Shown one piece after another: positions 1,161-8,930 of a DNA stretch of 10,321 nucleotides (its first letter is position 1; each line of letters opens with the position of its first letter). The notes beneath the pieces are model-generated. The model made no database searches, had not been told where the DNA came from, and worked only from the letters and a program-made list of their open reading frames with translations. The stretch is from the IMG/VR virus record IMGVR_UViG_2740892234_000013; one strand, 5' to 3'. This stretch comes from a virus (taxonomy: Duplodnaviria > Heunggongvirae > Uroviricota > Caudoviricetes). A program made the translations under genes and the position numbers.

Positions 1161-1754
1161 ATGTTTACTAAGCGACGATTAAAAAATATTAACTGGGAGG
1201 CAAGTTCAGTGATTCTTGCTATGGTTCTCTTTGTTGGAAATATATTTTATACAAATCATCGTGATGATATAAGCATGGAGGCTGAGAGGGACAGTATCAG
1301 AACAATGTTTGCATATGAAATCACTAATAACCATCGCGCTCTCACTTTTCTTGATAAAACGAGATATATTGGCTTTGACGAAAATTCGGAGCATTTTGTT
1401 GGCGAGCCTTTTGCCATTAATGTCAAATCATTAGGGGGGCCTCGCTTACAGATTGCATTAAACCAGACTGATAAAGTGTTTAAATCCTACTTCAGCGAAT
1501 TAAGTAAGCTTGATAAAGAGGATGTTACTCTTCTTATGGACTATTACCATGAGCAAAGCATCCTGCTGGAGCGTGTAAAATCTACGTTACAGAAGATGAA
1601 AAGTGGTAATGATATTAAAGTTGATATTGATGGTTACTTATTAGAAGAACACTTCATGAATGAGCTTAATCTTTCTAATATTTTGCTTAAACGCTATAGC
1701 CATTTGTTGTCACAATACGCTAAAGAACATAAAACAAAAGATTTACATAATTGA
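1161..1754 (+). CDS. Hypothetical membrane-anchored protein of unknown function; cargo (moron) gene at the Z/fun-equivalent position
   Basis: 197-aa ORF with an AAGG Shine-Dalgarno at 1151-1154, 6 nt before the ATG. The N-terminus has basic residues (KRRLK) followed by one hydrophobic segment (SSVILAMVLFVGNIFY), i.e. a probable signal-anchor or uncleaved signal. The rest is hydrophilic and contains no Cys. The region is AT-rich: I counted 18 G+C in the 60 nt 1201-1260 versus 38 in 2101-2160 inside FI. I recognise no known family. Confidence 0.6.
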   Translation: MFTKRRLKNINWEASSVILAMVLFVGNIFYTNHRDDISMEAERDSIRTMFAYEITNNHRALTFLDKTRYIGFDENSEHFVGEPFAINVKSLGGPRLQIALNQTDKVFKSYFSELSKLDKEDVTLLMDYYHEQSILLERVKSTLQKMKSGNDIKVDIDGYLLEEHFMNELNLSNILLKRYSHLLSQYAKEHKTKDLHN

Positions 1755-1960
1755 TAATCTGCTAATGGTTATTCATGGGGTAACTATGTTTTATATGTAA
1801 TCCAACTCAGATGAATTATTGATTCTGGATAATAACCGCAGAGCGGCATATACCCTGACAGGCAAATGTCCGCTTCTTGTTCAAAGCAGACTGTCAGATT
1901 TGATAACTTTTGGGCTATGTAAATTGTCAGTCGGAAAATGAGTGAGTTCAAATCAGGACA

Positions 1961-1987
1961 GGCGGGCGAATTGCCCGCCTTTTCTTT
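1961..1987 (+). terminator. Rho-independent terminator downstream of the cargo gene
   Basis: Perfect 7-bp GC-rich stem GGCGGGC (1961-1967), loop GAATT, GCCCGCC (1973-1979), followed by TTTTCTTT (1980-1987). Confidence 0.7.
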
Positions 1988-1989
1988 AT

Positions 1990-2060
1990 CTGTTGTTTCA
2001 TCCACTGACCAGCCAGGTCAAATAGCGTCTCATGCTCTGCACAACAGAAAATAGTTGCAC
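1990..2060 (+). promoter_or_regulatory. Candidate late promoter region for the FI-FII-E-T-U-D operon (P2 P_F equivalent, Ogr-dependent)
   Basis: Located between the terminator and the FI start, where P2 has P_F. Contains TGTTGT (1991-1996), a perfect dyad TGACC-AGCCA-GGTCA (2006-2020) and ACAACA (2041-2046). I could not place an exact TGT-N12-ACA Ogr element, so the coordinates are approximate. Confidence 0.3.
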
Positions 2061-2083
2061 CCATTAACCACGGAGTTAAACGG

Positions 2084-3286: not shown

Positions 3287-3805
3287 ATGGCAATGCCGCG
3301 CAAACTCAAGTTAATGAACGTCTTTCTGAACGGCTACAGCTATCAGGGCGTTGCAAAGTCCGTCACGCTGCCAAAACTGACCCGTAAACTCGAAAACTAT
3401 CGCGGTGCGGGGATGAACGGAAGCGCACCGGTAGACCTCGGCCTTGATGACGATGCGCTGTCAATGGAGTGGTCGCTCGGTGGTTTCCCGGATTCGGTTA
3501 TCTGGGAGCTTTACGCAGCAACCGGTGTGGATGCCGTGCCGATTCGTTTTGCAGGCTCTTACCAGCGCGACGATACCGGCGAAACGGTGGCCGTCGAGGT
3601 GGTCATGCGTGGACGTCAGAAAGAAATCGACACCGGCGAGGGTAAACAGGGAGAAGACACCGAGTCGAAAATCTCCGTGGTCTGCACCTATTTCCGGCTG
3701 ACGATGGACGGTAAGGAGCTGGTCGAAATCGACACCATCAACATGATTGAGAAGGTGAACGGCGTCGACCGGCTGGAGCAACACCGCCGCAATATCGGCC
3801 TGTAA
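3287..3805 (+). CDS. FII: Tail tube protein (P2 gpFII)
   Basis: 172 aa, the same length as P2 FII. AAGGAG Shine-Dalgarno at 3272-3277. Immediately follows the sheath gene. Confidence 0.9.
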   Translation: MAMPRKLKLMNVFLNGYSYQGVAKSVTLPKLTRKLENYRGAGMNGSAPVDLGLDDDALSMEWSLGGFPDSVIWELYAATGVDAVPIRFAGSYQRDDTGETVAVEVVMRGRQKEIDTGEGKQGEDTESKISVVCTYFRLTMDGKELVEIDTINMIEKVNGVDRLEQHRRNIGL

Positions 3806-3861: not shown

Positions 3862-4137
3862 ATGAACAAAGAAAATGTGATTACCCTGGACAATCCGGTC
3901 AAGCGTGGTGAGCAGGTTATCGAACAGGTCACGCTGATGAAACCCAGTGCGGGGACGCTGCGCGGTGTCAGTCTGGCTGCGGTCGCAAACTCAGAAGTCG
4001 ATGCACTGATTAAGGTGCTGCCGCGCATGACGGCACCGATGCTGACCGAGCAGGAAGTCGCCGCGCTGGAACTGCCTGACCTTGTGGCGCTGGCCGGTAA
4101 GGTGGTCGGTTTTTTGTCGCCGAACTCGGTGCAGTAA
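3862..4137 (+). CDS. E: Tail assembly chaperone gpE (in-frame product)
   Basis: 91 aa, the same length as P2 gpE. Sits between tube and tape-measure genes and ends just after a TTTTTTG slippery heptamer. Confidence 0.9.
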   Translation: MNKENVITLDNPVKRGEQVIEQVTLMKPSAGTLRGVSLAAVANSEVDALIKVLPRMTAPMLTEQEVAALELPDLVALAGKVVGFLSPNSVQ

Positions 4138-4289
4138 CGTTCCCGAAAAATCTGTCGGTCGATGACCTGATGGCGGATGTGGCAGTGATATTTCACTGGC
4201 CGCCATCAGAACTGTATCCCATGAGCCTGACCGAACTCATCACATGGCGCGAAAAGGCGCTCCGGCGAAGCGGAAACACGAATGAGTAA
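3862..4289 (+). CDS. E+E': Tail assembly chaperone gpE+E' made by a -1 programmed frameshift at 4110-4116
   Basis: After the T-run the -1 frame is open to TAA at 4287-4289. My translation of that frame is FVAELGAVTFPKNLSVDDLMADVAVIFHWPPSELYPMSLTELITWREKALRRSGNTNE, which matches the P2 E' extension as I recall it. The stop overlaps the T start codon at 4282. Confidence 0.8.
4110..4116 (+). other. Slippery heptamer TTTTTTG for the E/E' -1 frameshift
   Basis: T(4110) TTTTT(4111-4115) G(4116), 21 nt before the gpE stop. Equivalent to the G/GT and E/E' shift sites of lambda and P2. Confidence 0.75.
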
Positions 4290-6729
4290 CAATGTAAAAT
4301 TACAGGTATTGCTCAGGGCTGTTGACCAGGCATCCCGCCCGTTTAAATCCATCCGCACAGCGAGCAAATCGCTGTCGGGGGATATCCGGGAAACACAAAA
4401 ATCACTGCGCGAGCTGAACGGTCAGGCATCCCGTATTGAGGGATTTCGCAAGACCAGTGCACAGCTCGCCGTGACTGGTCATGCACTTGAAAAGGCACGG
4501 CAGGAGGCCGAAGCCCTTGCCACACAGTTTAAAAACACCGAACGTCCGACACGTGCTCAGGCGAAAGTGCTGGAATCAGCAAAGCGTGCGGCGGAGGACT
4601 TACAGGCGAAATATAACCGCCTGACGGATTCCGTTAAACGCCAGCAGCGGGAACTGGCCGTTGTGGGAATTAATACCCGCAATCTTGCACATGATGAGCA
4701 GGGACTGAAAAACCGTATCAGTGAAACCACCGCACAGCTTAACCGTCAGCGTGACGCGCTGGCGCGTGTCAGTGCGCAACAGGCAAAACTTAACGCAGTA
4801 AAACAGCGTTATCATGCTGGCAAGGAACTGTCCGGAAATATGGCCTCAGTGGGCGCTGCCGGTGTGGGGATTGCGGCGGCGGGAACGATGGCCGGAGTTA
4901 AGCTGCTGATGCCCGGTTATGAGTTTGCGCAGAAAAACTCAGAATTGCAGGCCGTGCTCGGTGTGGCAAAAGATTCCGCCGAAATGGCCGCGCTCCGCAA
5001 ACAGGCGCGCCAGCTCGGCGACAATACCGCCGCCTCAGCGGATGATGCGGCCGGTGCGCAGATTATCATTGCGAAAGCGGGTGGGGATGTTGATGCCATT
5101 CAGGCGGCAACGCCGGTCACGCTGAACATGGCGCTGGCGAACCGCCGCACGATGGAAGAAAACGCCGCCCTGCTGATGGGGATGAAATCCGCCTTTCAGC
5201 TTTCAAACGATAAGGTCGCTCATATCGGGGATGTTCTCTCCGTGACGATGAACAAAACCGCCGCCGATTTTGACGGCATGAGCGATGCGCTGACCTATGC
5301 CGCACCTGTGGCAAAAAATGCCGGTGTCAGCATTGAAGAAACCGCCGCAATGGTCGGGGCGCTGCATGATGCAAAAATTACAGGCTCAATGGCGGGGACG
5401 GGAAGCCGTGCCGTGTTAAGTCGCCTGCAGGCACCAACGGGAAAAGCATGGGATGCACTCAAAGAGCTTGGCGTGAAAACCTCAGACAGCAAGGGAAACA
5501 CCCGGCCAATATTTACCATTCTGAAAGAAATGCAGGCCAGTTTTGAGAAAAACCGGCTCGGTACTGCCCAGCAGGCGGAATACATGAAAACTATTTTCGG
5601 GGAGGAGGCCAGCTCAGCCGCCGCCGTGCTGATGACTGCCGCCTCAACCGGAAAACTGGACAAACTGACCGCTGCGTTTAAAGCCTCAGACGGGAAGACT
5701 GCCGAGCTGGTAAATATCATGCAGGACAACCTCGGCGGTGACTTTAAGGAGTTTCAGTCCGCTTATGAGGCGGTAGGGACAGACCTGTTTGACCAGCAGG
5801 AAGGCGCACTGCGTAAGCTCACACAGACGGCCACAAAGTATGTGTTAAAACTCGACGGCTGGATACAGAAAAACAAATCACTGGCGTCAACCATTGGCAT
5901 CATTGCCGGTGGCGCGCTGGCGCTTACTGGCATCATCGGTGCAATTGGTCTTGTAGCCTGGCCGGTTATCACCGGCATCAATGCCATCATCGCGGCAGCA
6001 GGCGCAATGGGTGCAATCTTCACGACGGTTGGCAGTGCCGTTATGACTGCTATCGGGGCGATTAGCTGGCCGGTTGTGGCAGTGGTGACCGCGATTGTCG
6101 CCGGGGCGTTGCTTATCCGTAAATACTGGGAGCCTGTCAGCGCATTCTTTGGCGGTGTGGTGGAAGGGCTGAAAGCGGCATTTGCGCCGGTGGGAGAACT
6201 GTTCACGCCACTGAAGCCGGTGTTTGACTGGCTGGGGGAAAAGTTACAGGCTGCGTGGCAGTGGTTTAAAAACCTGATTGCACCGGTCAAAGCCACCCGG
6301 GACACCCTGAACCGTTGCCGTGACACGGGCGTCATGTTCGGGCTGGCACTGGCTGACGCGCTGATGCTGCCGCTTAATGCGTTCAACAAATTACGCAGCG
6401 GCATTGACTGGGTACTGGAAAAGCTCGGGGTCATCAACAAAGAGTCAGACACACTTGACCAGACCGCCGCCAGAACTCATGCCGCCACGTATGGCACCGG
6501 TGGTTATATTCCGGCGACCAGCTCTTATGCAGGCTATCAGGCTTATCAGCCGGTCACGGCACCGGCTGGCCGCTCTTATGTGGACCAGAGTAAAAACGAA
6601 TATCACATCAGCCTGACGGGTGGTACTGCACCGGGGACACAGCTTGACCGCCAGTTACAGGATGCGCTCGAAAAATACGAGCGGGATAAACGTGCGCGCG
6701 CCCGTGCCAGCATGATGCATGACGGTTAA
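4282..6729 (+). CDS. T: Tail tape measure protein (P2 gpT)
   Basis: 815 aa, the same length as P2 T. Coiled-coil-like Q/R/A-rich N-terminus and a long Gly/Ala/Ile-rich hydrophobic central segment (GIIAGGALALTGIIGAIGLVAWPVITGINAIIAAAGAMGAIFTTVGSAVMTAIGAISWPVVAVVTAIVAGALL), typical of tape-measure proteins. Confidence 0.9.
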   Translation: MSNNVKLQVLLRAVDQASRPFKSIRTASKSLSGDIRETQKSLRELNGQASRIEGFRKTSAQLAVTGHALEKARQEAEALATQFKNTERPTRAQAKVLESAKRAAEDLQAKYNRLTDSVKRQQRELAVVGINTRNLAHDEQGLKNRISETTAQLNRQRDALARVSAQQAKLNAVKQRYHAGKELSGNMASVGAAGVGIAAAGTMAGVKLLMPGYEFAQKNSELQAVLGVAKDSAEMAALRKQARQLGDNTAASADDAAGAQIIIAKAGGDVDAIQAATPVTLNMALANRRTMEENAALLMGMKSAFQLSNDKVAHIGDVLSVTMNKTAADFDGMSDALTYAAPVAKNAGVSIEETAAMVGALHDAKITGSMAGTGSRAVLSRLQAPTGKAWDALKELGVKTSDSKGNTRPIFTILKEMQASFEKNRLGTAQQAEYMKTIFGEEASSAAAVLMTAASTGKLDKLTAAFKASDGKTAELVNIMQDNLGGDFKEFQSAYEAVGTDLFDQQEGALRKLTQTATKYVLKLDGWIQKNKSLASTIGIIAGGALALTGIIGAIGLVAWPVITGINAIIAAAGAMGAIFTTVGSAVMTAIGAISWPVVAVVTAIVAGALLIRKYWEPVSAFFGGVVEGLKAAFAPVGELFTPLKPVFDWLGEKLQAAWQWFKNLIAPVKATRDTLNRCRDTGVMFGLALADALMLPLNAFNKLRSGIDWVLEKLGVINKESDTLDQTAARTHAATYGTGGYIPATSSYAGYQAYQPVTAPAGRSYVDQSKNEYHISLTGGTAPGTQLDRQLQDALEKYERDKRARARASMMHDG

Positions 6730-6743
6730 GGAGGTGACGAAAA

Positions 6744-7223
6744 ATGATGCTCGCGTTAGGTATGTTTGTTTTTATGCGCCAGACGCTGCCACACCAGACC
6801 ATGCAGCGTGAATCAGATTATCGCTGGCCGTCAAATTCCCGTATCGGTAAACGGGATGCCTACCAGTTTCTCGGCGTTGGTGAGGAAAACATGACGCTTG
6901 CCGGTGTGCTTTATCCCGAACTGACCGGCGGCAAGCTGACGATGACCACGCTCAGGATGATGGCTGAGGAAGGCCGGGCGTGGCCGTTGCTGGATGGCAC
7001 CGGCATGATTTACGGCATGTATGTTATCAGCAGGGTGAGTGAAACAGGGAGTATTTTCTTTGCAGACGGCACACCCCGGAAAATTGATTTTACGCTGTCG
7101 CTCACCCGCGTTGATGAATCACTGGCCGCGCTTTATGGCGATATCGGTAAACAGGCGGAGTCGCTCATCGGTAAGGCTGGCAGTATGGCGACCAGATTCA
7201 CGGGTATGACGGGGGCGGGATAA
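6744..7223 (+). CDS. U: Tail protein gpU (tail terminator/completion)
   Basis: 159 aa, the same length as P2 U. Strong AAGGAGGTGA Shine-Dalgarno at 6727-6736. Its stop overlaps the D start by 1 nt (TAATG). Confidence 0.9.
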   Translation: MMLALGMFVFMRQTLPHQTMQRESDYRWPSNSRIGKRDAYQFLGVGEENMTLAGVLYPELTGGKLTMTTLRMMAEEGRAWPLLDGTGMIYGMYVISRVSETGSIFFADGTPRKIDFTLSLTRVDESLAALYGDIGKQAESLIGKAGSMATRFTGMTGAG

Positions 7224-8386
7224 TGCTGGATGCGCTGACATTTGATGCAGGCAGTACGCTGACGCCGGATTACATGCTGATGCTCGACAGCAGGGATATT
7301 ACCGGCAATATCAGCGACCGTCTGATGAGCATGACTCTGACGGATAACCGGGGCTTTGAGGCTGACCAGCTTGATATTGAACTGAACGATGCCGACGGGC
7401 AGGTCGAACTGCCGGTTCGTGGCGCTGTCCTGACGGTGTATATCGGCTGGAAAGGTTTTGCCCTGGTATGCAAAGGGAAATTCACCGTTGATGAGGTAGA
7501 ACACCGGGGCGCGCCGGATGTGGTCACCATCCGGGCCCGGAGTGCAGATTTTCGTGGCACGCTCAATTCCCGCCGTGAAGGCTCCTGGCATGACACCACG
7601 CTCGGTGCGATTGTTGAGGCGATAGCCTCCCGTAACAGGCTGGAAGCCAGTGTCGCTCCGTCACTGGCCGGAATTAAAATCCCGCACATCGACCAGTCGC
7701 AGGAGTCTGATGCTAAATTCTTGACCCGTCTTGCTGAACGCAACGGCGGTGAGGTGTCGGTAAAAATGGGAAAACTGCTGTTTCTCAAAGCGGGGCAGGG
7801 GGTGACGGCCAGCGGTAAAAAAATCCCGCAGGTCACCATCACCCGCAGCGACGGTGACCGCCATCATTTTGCGATTGCTGACCGTGGAGCCTACACCGGC
7901 GTAACGGCGAAGTGGTTACACACCAAAGACCCGAAGCCGCAAAAGCAGAAGGTAAAACTGAAACGCAAAAAGAAAGAGAAACACCTGCGCGCACTGGAGC
8001 ACCCCAAAGCGAAACCGGTCACGCAGAAGAAAGCGCCAAAAGTACCGGAAGCGCGCGAAGGTGAATACATGGCCGGTGAAGCTGACAACGTTTTTGCCCT
8101 GACTACGGTATATGCCACAAAAGCGCAGGCCATGCGCGCCGCTCAGGCAAAGTGGGATAAGCTGCAACGGGGCGTTGCGGAGTTCTCCATCAGTCTGGCT
8201 ACTGGTCGGGCAGATATTTACACGGAAACGCCGGTCAAAGTGTCAGGCTTTAAGCGCGTCATAGACGAGCAGGACTGGACAATCACTAAGGTGACACATT
8301 TTCTGAATAATAGCGGCTTCACGACGTCCTTAGAGCTTGAGGTCAGGCTTTCTGATGTGGAGTACGAAACAGAAGATGATGAGTGA
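7223..8386 (+). CDS. D: Tail protein gpD (late control gene D, tail hub/baseplate-proximal)
   Basis: 387 aa, the same length as P2 D. Translationally coupled to U. Last gene of the tail operon, before ogr. Confidence 0.9.
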   Translation: MLDALTFDAGSTLTPDYMLMLDSRDITGNISDRLMSMTLTDNRGFEADQLDIELNDADGQVELPVRGAVLTVYIGWKGFALVCKGKFTVDEVEHRGAPDVVTIRARSADFRGTLNSRREGSWHDTTLGAIVEAIASRNRLEASVAPSLAGIKIPHIDQSQESDAKFLTRLAERNGGEVSVKMGKLLFLKAGQGVTASGKKIPQVTITRSDGDRHHFAIADRGAYTGVTAKWLHTKDPKPQKQKVKLKRKKKEKHLRALEHPKAKPVTQKKAPKVPEAREGEYMAGEADNVFALTTVYATKAQAMRAAQAKWDKLQRGVAEFSISLATGRADIYTETPVKVSGFKRVIDEQDWTITKVTHFLNNSGFTTSLELEVRLSDVEYETEDDE

Positions 8387-8404: not shown

Positions 8405-8433
8405 TTGTTTTGTAAGGGTAAATTAACTAAAAT
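8405..8433 (+). promoter_or_regulatory. Candidate sigma70 promoter for ogr
   Basis: TTGTTT (8405-8410), 17-bp spacer, TAAAAT (8428-8433), about 35 nt upstream of the ogr ATG. Confidence 0.35.
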
Positions 8434-8467
8434 GGCACCATCAACAAAACCGGAAGAGGTGCTCGCG

Positions 8468-8686
8468 ATGTTTCATTGTCCTTTATGCCAGCATGCCGCA
8501 CATGCGCGTACAAGCCGCTATATCACTGACACGACAAAAGAGCGTTATCACCAGTGCCAGAACGTGAATTGCAGCGCCACGTTCATCACTTATGAGTCGG
8601 TACAGCGATACATCGTGAAGCCGGGAGAAGTCCACGCCGTGAGGCCGCACCCGTTGCCGTCAGGGCAGCAAATTATGTGGATGTAA
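8468..8686 (+). CDS. ogr: Late-gene transcriptional activator Ogr (C4 zinc-finger)
   Basis: The 72-aa product from the internal ATG at 8468 starts MFHCPLCQHAAHARTSRYITDTTKERYHQCQNVNCSATF, i.e. a CxxC...CxxxxC zinc-binding pattern and the Ogr/Delta family N-terminus. GGAAGAGG lies just upstream. The 93-aa ORF in the track from 8405 is probably an over-extension. Confidence 0.85.
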   Translation: MFHCPLCQHAAHARTSRYITDTTKERYHQCQNVNCSATFITYESVQRYIVKPGEVHAVRPHPLPSGQQIMWM

Positions 8687-8788: not shown

Positions 8789-8815
8789 AAAAAATAAGCC
8801 CGTGTAAGGGAGATT
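8789..8815. other. attR: P2 att core (attR crossover region), prophage/host boundary
   Basis: AAAAAATAAGCCCGTGTAAGGGAGATT matches the 27-bp P2 attP/attB core as I recall it. It lies after ogr, where P2 attP is located, and coincides with the 3' end of cyaR. Confidence 0.7.
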
Positions 8816-8875
8816 ACACAGGCTAAGGAGGTGGTTCCTGGTACAGCTAGCATTTTATGGGTTATGTTTTTCAGC
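8789..8875 (-). ncRNA. cyaR: CyaR (RyeE) small regulatory RNA, Hfq-dependent and CRP-activated
   Basis: The reverse complement of 8789-8875 reads GCTGAAAAACATAACCCATAAAATGCTAGCTGTACCAGGAACCACCTCCTTAGCCTGTGTAATCTCCCTTACACGGGCTTATTTTTT (87 nt), which matches the CyaR sequence as I recall it, including the CCTCCTT motif. The terminator hairpin is GCCTGTGTAA/TTACACGGGC plus a U-tract. Confidence 0.75.
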
Positions 8876-8930
8876 GAAACGGATGATAACCTTAATAAAT
8901 ACAGCTGTATGTGATCGGTTTCTAAGAATT
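8876..8930 (-). promoter_or_regulatory. cyaR promoter with candidate class II CRP site
   Basis: On the - strand, TATCAT sits at 8888-8883 (about -13 to -8 from a 5' end at 8875). A TGTGA half-site at 8910-8914 places a 22-bp CRP window centred at about -41.5; the second half-site (TTTCT) is weak. Confidence 0.4.

Follow-up and report, generated by a model that had tools for sequence, protein, structure and literature searches.

A single-gene cassette at the Z/fun locus of a P2-like prophage

The DNA analysed here, referred to as the window, is the whole 10,321-nucleotide (nt) stretch taken from the IMG/VR virus record IMGVR_UViG_2740892234_000013. The 10.3-kb window comprises the right arm of a P2-like Escherichia coli prophage together with its junction with the host chromosome. 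We focused on a gene located between the tail-fibre assembly gene G and the tail sheath gene FI, hereafter the cargo gene, which encodes a 197-amino-acid (aa) protein of the family phrog_3829. The features in and around the cargo gene are as follows.

412-939, + strand: tail-fibre assembly gene G, the left flank (Pfam Caudo_TAP, E = 1e-34)
970-1018, + strand: hairpin following G, part of the P2 backbone and not a canonical terminator (RNA fold z = -2.5; the same sequence follows G in P2)
1015-1865, no strand assigned: AT-rich cassette (~35% GC) with P2-backbone homology on both sides (composition and alignments to P2)
1151-1154, + strand: Shine-Dalgarno-like AAGG, 6 nt before the ATG (read from the sequence)
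1161-1754, + strand: cargo coding sequence, 197 aa, phrog_3829 (translation of the open reading frame, profile match, purifying selection, exact sequence in NCBI)
1960-1989, + strand: intrinsic terminator with a 9-bp stem (7 GC pairs) followed by a T-run, part of the backbone and conserved in P2
2084-3274, + strand: tail sheath gene FI, the right flank (Pfam sheath domains; P2 annotation)

Homology to the P2 backbone continues for ~75 nt past G, a stretch that includes the hairpin at 970-1018, stops at ~1015, and returns at ~1865; other P2-like phages align from about 1855 onward only. The GC content is 35% at about positions 1000-1900 versus 55-59% in the flanking tail genes. Because the P2 homology breaks ~75 nt after G and returns at ~1865, the cargo is an ~850-bp cassette at the classical P2 Z/fun locus between G and FI. 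The gene is located exactly at that locus, as an insert within a conserved backbone, and the best explanation of this arrangement is a self-contained, horizontally acquired single-gene cassette. At the same locus, P2 itself carries fun(Z), an unrelated gene on the opposite strand that encodes a 528-aa protein.

The cargo gene is real, conserved, and common in E. coli

The open reading frame (ORF) of the cargo gene starts with the ATG at 1161 and extends on the + strand to a stop codon that ends at 1754. The sequence TTTTGATAATTAAGG upstream of the ORF is also kept upstream of a copy on an Enterobacter plasmid (see below). An identical protein is present in NCBI, where the 90%-identity cluster has 569 member sequences. 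Pairs of homologues differed at a proportion of 0.16-0.30 of nonsynonymous sites (pN) versus 0.64-0.97 of synonymous sites (pS), the latter being saturated, and the same was found for codons 1-35. The cargo ORF is a real gene under strong purifying selection, its N-terminus included.

Since codons 1-35 are under purifying selection and AAGG is present at 1151-1154, the ATG at 1161, and thus the 197-aa product, is the favoured start. Several public records, including P2_AC1, P2_SIDE7, and 149 Logan sequences, instead give a 181-aa product that begins at the GTG at 1209-1211 (codon 17). This alternative start would halve the hydrophobic helix described below, and the conservation of residues 9-16 speaks for the 197-aa form.

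At least 80% of the locus is present in 201/5426 (~3.7%, about 1 in 27) complete E. coli genomes; among genomes with a match to the P2 Z/fun flank, approximately 1 in 5 carry the cargo gene. The locus is also present in 13 phage records. The gene is absent from P2 and from most P2-like phages and is therefore not needed for phage growth. An IS1 element is inserted in the locus of strain EECO1006, and truncated, 99-aa versions of the protein are found on about 40 contigs; thus, the gene is occasionally inactivated.

The phrog_3829 family and its genomic contexts

The cargo protein matched phrog_3829, a family of "unknown function," over its full length (E = 9.3e-137, residues 1-197 of a 197-position profile), and the same profile was matched by all 22 members of a wide alignment of homologues (A2) that extends to 19% identity. 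A profile search of 1.8 billion representative proteins returned only 28 hits, one of which was a TPR false positive. Full-length members are 165-218 aa long and share a common layout, namely, a basic tail, one hydrophobic segment, and a helical domain. Searches of Pfam, NCBIfam, PADLOC, and PDB sequences found nothing for the cargo protein or the 22 family members (Pfam at E ≤ 1); in PADLOC-DB v2, no match was found for the cargo protein at E ≤ 10, and none was found for the Proteus and Kosakonia homologues. The Prokaryotic Genome Annotation Pipeline (PGAP) names the family "lysogenic conversion protein." The origin of this name could not be traced. With no matching NCBIfam model and no paper found in a literature search by family identifiers, it appears to be a positional one.

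A scan of species-representative genomes yielded two loci only. At 29 E. coli-type P2-like loci in IMG/VR, the gene is located 224 nt after G and 332 nt before FI and is always alone. Linkage to one tail-fibre type was considered and rejected, as the cargo gene stands beside at least four different H/G alleles at these loci. Three P4-like satellites, in Pantoea ananatis, in Kosakonia oryzendophytica, and on one IMG/VR contig, carry a relative with 61-62% identity directly after the primase gene (loci L003 5402-6001, L012 7989-8591, and L045 5001-5579). According to a 2026 survey, P2 and P4 almost never share defence genes, against which a family common to P2 phages and P4 satellites (~62% identity) is unusual. 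In a Pantoea island, the relative lies near ArdA and RadC.

Two more distant homologues are found beside genes with links to phage defence. In Proteus mirabilis ATCC 29906 (L013 3712-8591), a homologue with 30% identity lies in a small islet adjoining ahpCF, where one neighbouring gene encodes a protein of 470 aa with a putAbiC domain and another a protein of 509 aa with an HD domain and weak dGTPase/Cas3-HD matches. In another prophage, a homologue with 32% identity (L046 4998-5585) is located 45 nt downstream of a co-oriented gene for a KAP P-loop NTPase (L046 3172-4953), which is a full-length match to the PADLOC candidate PDC-S49 (E = 4e-88). The NTPase gene and the homologue may constitute a unit of two genes in this lineage of prophages.

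The plasmid copy is located on an Enterobacter cloacae IncFII plasmid (L005, about 5660-5900). Because the DNA upstream of it, GTGCCAA(A/G)AGCGGA, resembles the hairpin region that follows G in P2, the sequence suggests a P2-like phage as the source from which this copy was captured. In the copy, the ATG start has apparently been replaced, and the in-frame sequence reads ...GALIKN.

A single, weakly hydrophobic segment: anchor or signal peptide

The following segments of the cargo gene, all on the + strand, encode the parts of the protein that are discussed here and in the next section.

1170-1184: codons for the basic N-tail KRRLK, residues 4-8
1194-1253: codons for the single hydrophobic helix, residues 12-31, WEASSVILAMVLFVGNIFYT (hydropathy and insertion-energy scans; helix 12-31 in the AlphaFold2 model)
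1266-1709: codons for the predicted helical-bundle domain, residues 36-183
1296-1334: codons for the most conserved motif, IRTMFAYEITNNH, residues 46-58 (alignment A2)

A first-pass annotation, made from the sequence alone, had described a single hydrophobic helix preceded by KRRLK, followed by no AxA-type cleavage motif and by a C-terminal part of roughly 165 residues. These three elements are borne out. The protein contains exactly one hydrophobic segment in the Kyte-Doolittle (KD) scan, with the maximum at residues 14-32 (KD17 = 1.97, KD19 = 1.54) and a runner-up of only 0.73; KRRLK occupies residues 4-8; no AxA motif occurs after the segment; and ~166 residues follow it.

The proposed orientation, with the N-terminus inside, also stood as a prediction. 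The N flank of the segment has +4 from Lys and Arg (+5 counting the N-terminus) and -1, and the C flank has +2 and -5; the net charge is higher at the N flank in nearly all family members, so that the positive-inside bias is observed across the family. A conserved aromatic belt is formed by W12 and Y30, the latter being Tyr or Trp in distant members; the two residues flank the segment at a conserved distance of ~18 residues. Together with paired C-x4-C cysteines in distant relatives (see below), flank charge and aromatic belt make a cytoplasmic N-terminus and a periplasmic C-terminal domain the best reading of the predicted topology.

The claim that the segment is a signal anchor is less secure. 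The insertion energy (dG) was scored by summing the Hessa 2005 scale over the best 19-residue window, with no position terms. Scored in this way, the cargo segment is marginally hydrophobic (dG19 = +4.0 kcal/mol). The same scoring gave -1.0 for P22 Rz, -1.3 for SieA, -1.5 for HK97 gp15, and -2.3 for T4 Imm, all of them anchors, as well as +3.8 for the N-terminal segment of T4 Sp and +5.4 for the best segment of the soluble sheath protein. In addition, most homologues have G-N-I-(I/V)-Y-(T/S) at the end of the segment, where residues 29-31 satisfy the -3/-1 rule of signal peptidase sites. Such a weak segment could belong to a protein that is cleaved and soluble, or it could fail to insert. Both the weak hydrophobicity and the compatible site weaken the case for an anchor.

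Cleavage would leave a Sec signal peptide behind and a mature bundle of ~166 aa soluble in the periplasm. This would change the topology only, since exclusion would still be possible, as with T4 Sp. The segment is just as hydrophobic as the T4 Sp signal peptide and much less so than proven anchors, and its layout resembles the n, h, and c regions of a signal peptide, with a basic tail, a core of 9-10 residues, a G-N break, and (I/V)-Y-(T/S) at positions -3 to -1 in most homologues. The cargo protein itself, however, has F-Y-T at residues 29-31, a poorer -3/-1 fit than that of its homologues, since F at -3 and T at -1 are both poor for signal peptidase I, and the AlphaFold2 model gives one continuous helix from 12 to 31. 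The segment is also as strongly conserved as the mature part (pN 0.16-0.30), which is unusual for a signal peptide, and so are its aromatic belt and its near-invariant W12, E13, S16, and N27. In the alignment, N11, W12, E13, A14, S16-M21, L23, F24, and N27 are near-invariant. Because of this conservation, an uncleaved anchor is favoured, and a cleaved signal peptide is considered unlikely. As the segment is conserved like the rest of the protein and a polar residue, N27 (Asn or Gln), is conserved inside it, the sequence further suggests that the helix does more than anchor the protein.

A predicted helical-bundle domain without a catalytic signature

An AlphaFold2 model built with 22 homologues had a mean predicted local distance difference test (pLDDT) score of 75 and a predicted template modelling (pTM) score of 0.68. 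Beyond the continuous helix at residues 12-31, the model has a long helix at 36-66, a beta-hairpin at 70-81, broken helices at 92-116, and two long helices at 119-148 and 151-183. As modelled, the C-terminal domain is an up-down four-helix bundle with a small beta-hairpin. Foldseek searches of the PDB and BFVD gave no match at E ≤ 0.001; the best matches were the lipid-anchored bundles of Borrelia Vsp/OspC (E = 0.04) and chemoreceptor domains. The modelled fold resembles helical bundles in a generic manner. Compared with the four-helix-bundle ligand domains of chemoreceptors (Tar, Tsr, PcaY, and PilJ), the cargo protein is without the second transmembrane helix and the signalling module. It has no Pfam 4HB_MCP/TarH match, and its bundle scores are typical of any helical bundle, with de novo designed bundles scoring higher.

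In the wide alignment, R47, N57, and L117 are invariant, and S16, A51, E53, I54, and Y129 are almost invariant. Along the first helix of the C-terminal domain, a single stretch carries the conserved polar residues. No catalytic motif was recognisable in the cargo protein. A HEPN-like Rx4-6H motif was considered and rejected, as 10 residues separate R47 from H58, a position that is not conserved.

The first-pass annotation had also noted that the protein is free of cysteine and had taken this, together with the missing catalytic motif, as fitting a binding or blocking role. The count is correct (0 Cys in 197 aa), and at an expected ~1.1% Cys the chance of finding none is ~0.1. The cluster representative has C138, and distant members have one to five Cys. 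Because the Cys-free state is not a conserved trait of the family, the argument from the absence of Cys carries no weight. The C-x4-C pairs of distant members are confined to the C-terminal domain, where they occur in the C-terminal tail (P0044, P0050, and P0054) or in the hairpin loop (two Proteus-type homologues), and their placement fits disulfide-stapled periplasmic loops.

Comparison with known exclusion proteins

Envelope proteins that keep phage DNA out of the cell are well known. HK97 gp15 blocks DNA entry, and T4 Imm and Sp are likewise small envelope proteins that block entry. The lactococcal Sie2009-type proteins are prophage-encoded, ~160-170 aa long, have an N-terminal membrane anchor with an extracytoplasmic remainder, and block DNA injection. 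The cargo gene belongs to a known kind, prophage hotspot cargo with a small envelope protein as its predicted product. The likeness to SieA, Imm, Sp, and gp15 is architectural only.

Like the cargo gene, the HK97 gp15 gene is a moron among tail genes with its own terminator, and its product has an N-terminal hydrophobic helix; unlike the cargo protein, gp15 has 62 aa rather than 197, its helix is strongly hydrophobic (dG -1.5), and the hhalign probability is 0.4%. T4 Imm and Sp, which stop the DNA or the tail lysozyme of an incoming phage, are comparable as small proteins of the envelope, and Sp matches the cargo protein in N-terminal hydrophobicity. They differ in being 83 and 97 aa long, respectively, with hhalign probabilities of 1.1% (Imm) and 0.05% (Sp), and Sp is annotated as periplasmic. 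The Sie2009-type proteins are from Gram-positive hosts and were likened to the cargo protein by description, not by sequence.

P22 SieA, a superinfection exclusion protein of the inner membrane, acts by blocking the ejection-protein conduit (PMC10883804). It resembles the cargo protein in being the small, prophage-encoded membrane protein of a single gene, in having no enzymatic motif, and in acting at the inner membrane. It differs in its more favourable insertion energy (dG -1.3) and in being without a large periplasmic helical domain, and the hhalign probability of 0.6% comes from the hydrophobic stretch only. P2 Fun(Z), the product of a lysogenic-conversion gene that blocks T5, shares with the cargo the locus between G and FI, an AT-rich composition, and a non-essential nature; unlike the cargo, it is 528 aa long and encoded on the opposite strand, has a P-loop-like N-terminus, and gave a probability of 0.1%. 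The P-loop-like motif of fun(Z) (L011 1176-2762, - strand) reads LVGEKGTGKT and lies near the N-terminus; although fun(Z) is a classical anti-T5 gene, it has no PADLOC v2 match.

No annotated exclusion family was found among the PHROGs matched by the cargo family. An inner-membrane spanin (i-spanin) of the Rz type was also considered and rejected, with a probability of 0.3% against P22 Rz and no match to a spanin PHROG. Among the ORFs overlapping or adjacent to the cargo gene, there is no lipobox Cys in a proper context and no lipoprotein partner that could serve as the outer-membrane spanin (o-spanin).

Defence context of the cargo gene

The Z/fun locus has been described as a second defence-enriched hotspot (PMC9519451; Egorov et al. 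preprint, bioRxiv 10.1101/2024.10.15.618418; PMC13586616), and the position between the primase gene and att is a minor hotspot of P4 (PMC13586616). Because members of the family occupy both the Z/fun hotspot and the P4-satellite hotspot and have AbiC-like and PDC-S49 neighbours, a defence-type context is strongly supported. Guilt by association thus hints at a role in inter-element conflict. The cargo gene is among the more frequent genes at a validated defence hotspot, and no database predicts a defence function for it. It is common and portable, being found in P2-like phages, P4-like satellites, a plasmid, and chromosomal islets, and it is not surprising in kind.

A candidate block of phage entry

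Envelope-level exclusion is the best single hypothesis for the cargo protein, a plausible one that is somewhat dented by indirect negatives. The best explanation that we can offer, and one that we hold tentatively, is a bitopic inner-membrane protein that blocks phage entry. The analysis shows the ORF and its conservation, the limits of the cassette, the genomic contexts, and that no catalytic or known-family signature is present; membrane insertion, orientation, an anti-phage role, a target, and a mode of action are all predicted steps of the model that we infer. A short basic N-tail would lie in the cytoplasm, a weakly hydrophobic transmembrane helix with a conserved Asn would cross the membrane once, and a bundle of ~150 residues with four helices and a small beta-hairpin would face the periplasm. 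Entry and lysis are the only occasions on which a domain in the periplasm can encounter a phage. The bundle would bind a part of the genome-delivery machinery of the incoming phage, for example, its tape measure, its ejection proteins, or its tail tip, or else the inner-membrane protein that these use. The face formed by R47, E53, and N57 is a possible binding surface, and the polar transmembrane helix may oligomerise or dock onto the target. As a result, the phage DNA would be stopped at the inner membrane and the cell would live on, an entry block akin to that by T4 Imm/Sp, P22 SieA, or HK97 gp15.

A more specific version of the entry block is possible but doubtful. In this version, phrog_3829 would be a single-protein immunity family of P2-like phages (at Z/fun) and P4-like satellites (between primase and att) that intercepts the genome delivery of a specific group of phages by means of a periplasm-facing four-helix bundle on a functional, Asn-containing transmembrane helix. 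The family would be unrelated in sequence to SieA, Imm, Sp, and gp15, and its targets, which might be T5-like phages, other contractile-tail phages, or tailocins, would have been missing from the panels of earlier work. If an entry block were true, the family would be a new one of envelope-level exclusion and would help to explain the resistance of some E. coli strains to therapeutic phages.

In addition to the weak segment and its possible cleavage site, several results weigh against a block of entry. No sequence or profile homology was found to any known exclusion protein compared (hhalign probabilities of about 1% or less), and the literature search found no experiment on the phrog_3829 family. 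The Z/fun hotspot is of "mixed purpose" and also holds non-defence cargo (bioRxiv 10.1101/2024.10.15.618418). Two phages isolated by Rousset et al., P2_AC1 and P2_SIDE7, carry an intact cargo gene, and E. coli C lysogens were tested in that study against lambda, T4, P1, 186, CLB_P2, LF82_P8, AL505_P2, and T7 (PMC9122126). The sole protection reported for a lysogen was that of AC1 against lambda and LF82_P8, and it was reproduced by the TIR system of AC1; from the text of the same paper, we infer that the SIDE7 lysogen gave no protection (PMC9122126). A selection of E. coli genomic libraries with T4, lambda-vir, and T7 recovered three systems from the hotspot, none of which matches the cargo (Vassallo et al., PMC9519451). 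T5-like phages, which P2 Fun(Z) excludes, were in neither panel. If the cargo gene had no anti-phage effect, part of the hotspot cargo would serve other purposes.

The predicted expression of the gene bears on the same reading. The cargo gene is co-oriented with the late operon that extends from V to G (V-W-J-I-H-G), and the interval that separates it from G contains a single structure, the backbone hairpin, where a clean U-run is missing; no terminator was called in this interval, and the first canonical terminator after G is the one at 1960-1989. Because of the co-orientation and the missing canonical terminator, read-through of the late V operon into the cargo gene is likely, and the gene may be expressed late rather than in the lysogen. 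A scan for sigma-70 promoters found only one weak site, at 1122-1149, and a transcript from it would begin with a leader of ~5 nt that lacks the Shine-Dalgarno sequence; no lysogenic promoter could be assigned at 1015-1160. A late promoter of the Ogr/Delta type was considered and rejected, as there is no TGT-N12-ACA dyad between G and the cargo gene.

Rather than blocking entry, the protein could be a triggered inner-membrane effector of abortive infection. On sensing injection or a late product of the phage, it would self-associate through its polar transmembrane helix and depolarise or permeabilise the membrane, so that the infected cell dies before any progeny are made. The relatives beside a putAbiC-domain protein and the PDC-S49 candidate point in this direction, as does the conserved Asn/Gln in a weakly hydrophobic helix, which is typical of self-associating helices; single-pass membrane effectors are moreover common in the systems of P2 and P4 hotspots (PMC9122126). 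The cargo gene travels alone, however, with no sensor or enzyme partner conserved beside it, one weak helix is a poor pore former, and the lysogen and selection data are as negative for such an effector as they are for exclusion. An effector that kills the infected cell is, on this evidence, improbable enough to stand well behind the block of entry.

The negative phage tests on lysogens would be expected of an envelope factor that serves no anti-phage purpose, either in lysogenic conversion as immunity to a bacteriocin, tailocin, or type VI secretion system effector that acts in the periplasm, or in a change of the envelope that benefits the host. Some bacteriocin immunity proteins, such as that for colicin M, consist of an N-terminal anchor and a periplasmic domain, an architecture that the cargo protein matches. 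The PGAP name, the mixed purpose of the hotspot, and the copies on a plasmid and a genomic island are in keeping with such a factor. Against it, no toxin partner lies near the gene in the contexts examined, and these contexts are mostly loci of phage conflict (the P2 hotspot, the P4 hotspot, and the AbiC-like and PDC-S49 neighbourhoods), which makes a function of this type quite unlikely. Least probable is a late-expressed function of benefit to the phage itself, in which the protein would act with the tail-fibre operon to block superinfection or wasteful ejection into lysing cells or to tune lysis: the shared orientation, the non-canonical hairpin before the first strong terminator, and a superficially i-spanin-like architecture favour it, but the gene is missing from P2 and most of its relatives, is also carried by P4 satellites, a plasmid, and chromosomal islets that have no late operons, shows no similarity to Rz and has no lipoprotein partner ORF, and P2-like phages already have LysB and LysC.

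Other features of the window

The remainder of the window has the gene order of a P2-like right arm, followed by the host chromosome.

121-408: tail fibre H, C-terminus
3287-3805: tube gene FII
3862-4137: gene E
4282-6729: tape measure gene T
6744-7223: gene U
7223-8386: gene D
ending at 8686: ogr
8792-8877, - strand: CyaR (RyeE) small RNA (100.7 bits, full length)
beyond CyaR: U32-peptidase (yegQ-like) gene

CyaR sits between the prophage ogr and the yegQ-like gene. E. coli K-12 has a P2 remnant (ogrK and yegZ) at the same site; therefore, the prophage appears to use that attachment site. The Ogr ORF at 8405-8686 (+ strand) was called from a TTG (93 aa), and the P2-type Ogr, MFHCPLCQH..., starts at the ATG at 8468 (72 aa). 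Some phage records list a 38-aa "hypothetical protein" at 1948-2064 (- strand), an interval that includes the backbone terminator and reaches into the region upstream of FI. In P2, the latter region holds the pF promoter and its activator site, and the 38-aa ORF is probably spurious.

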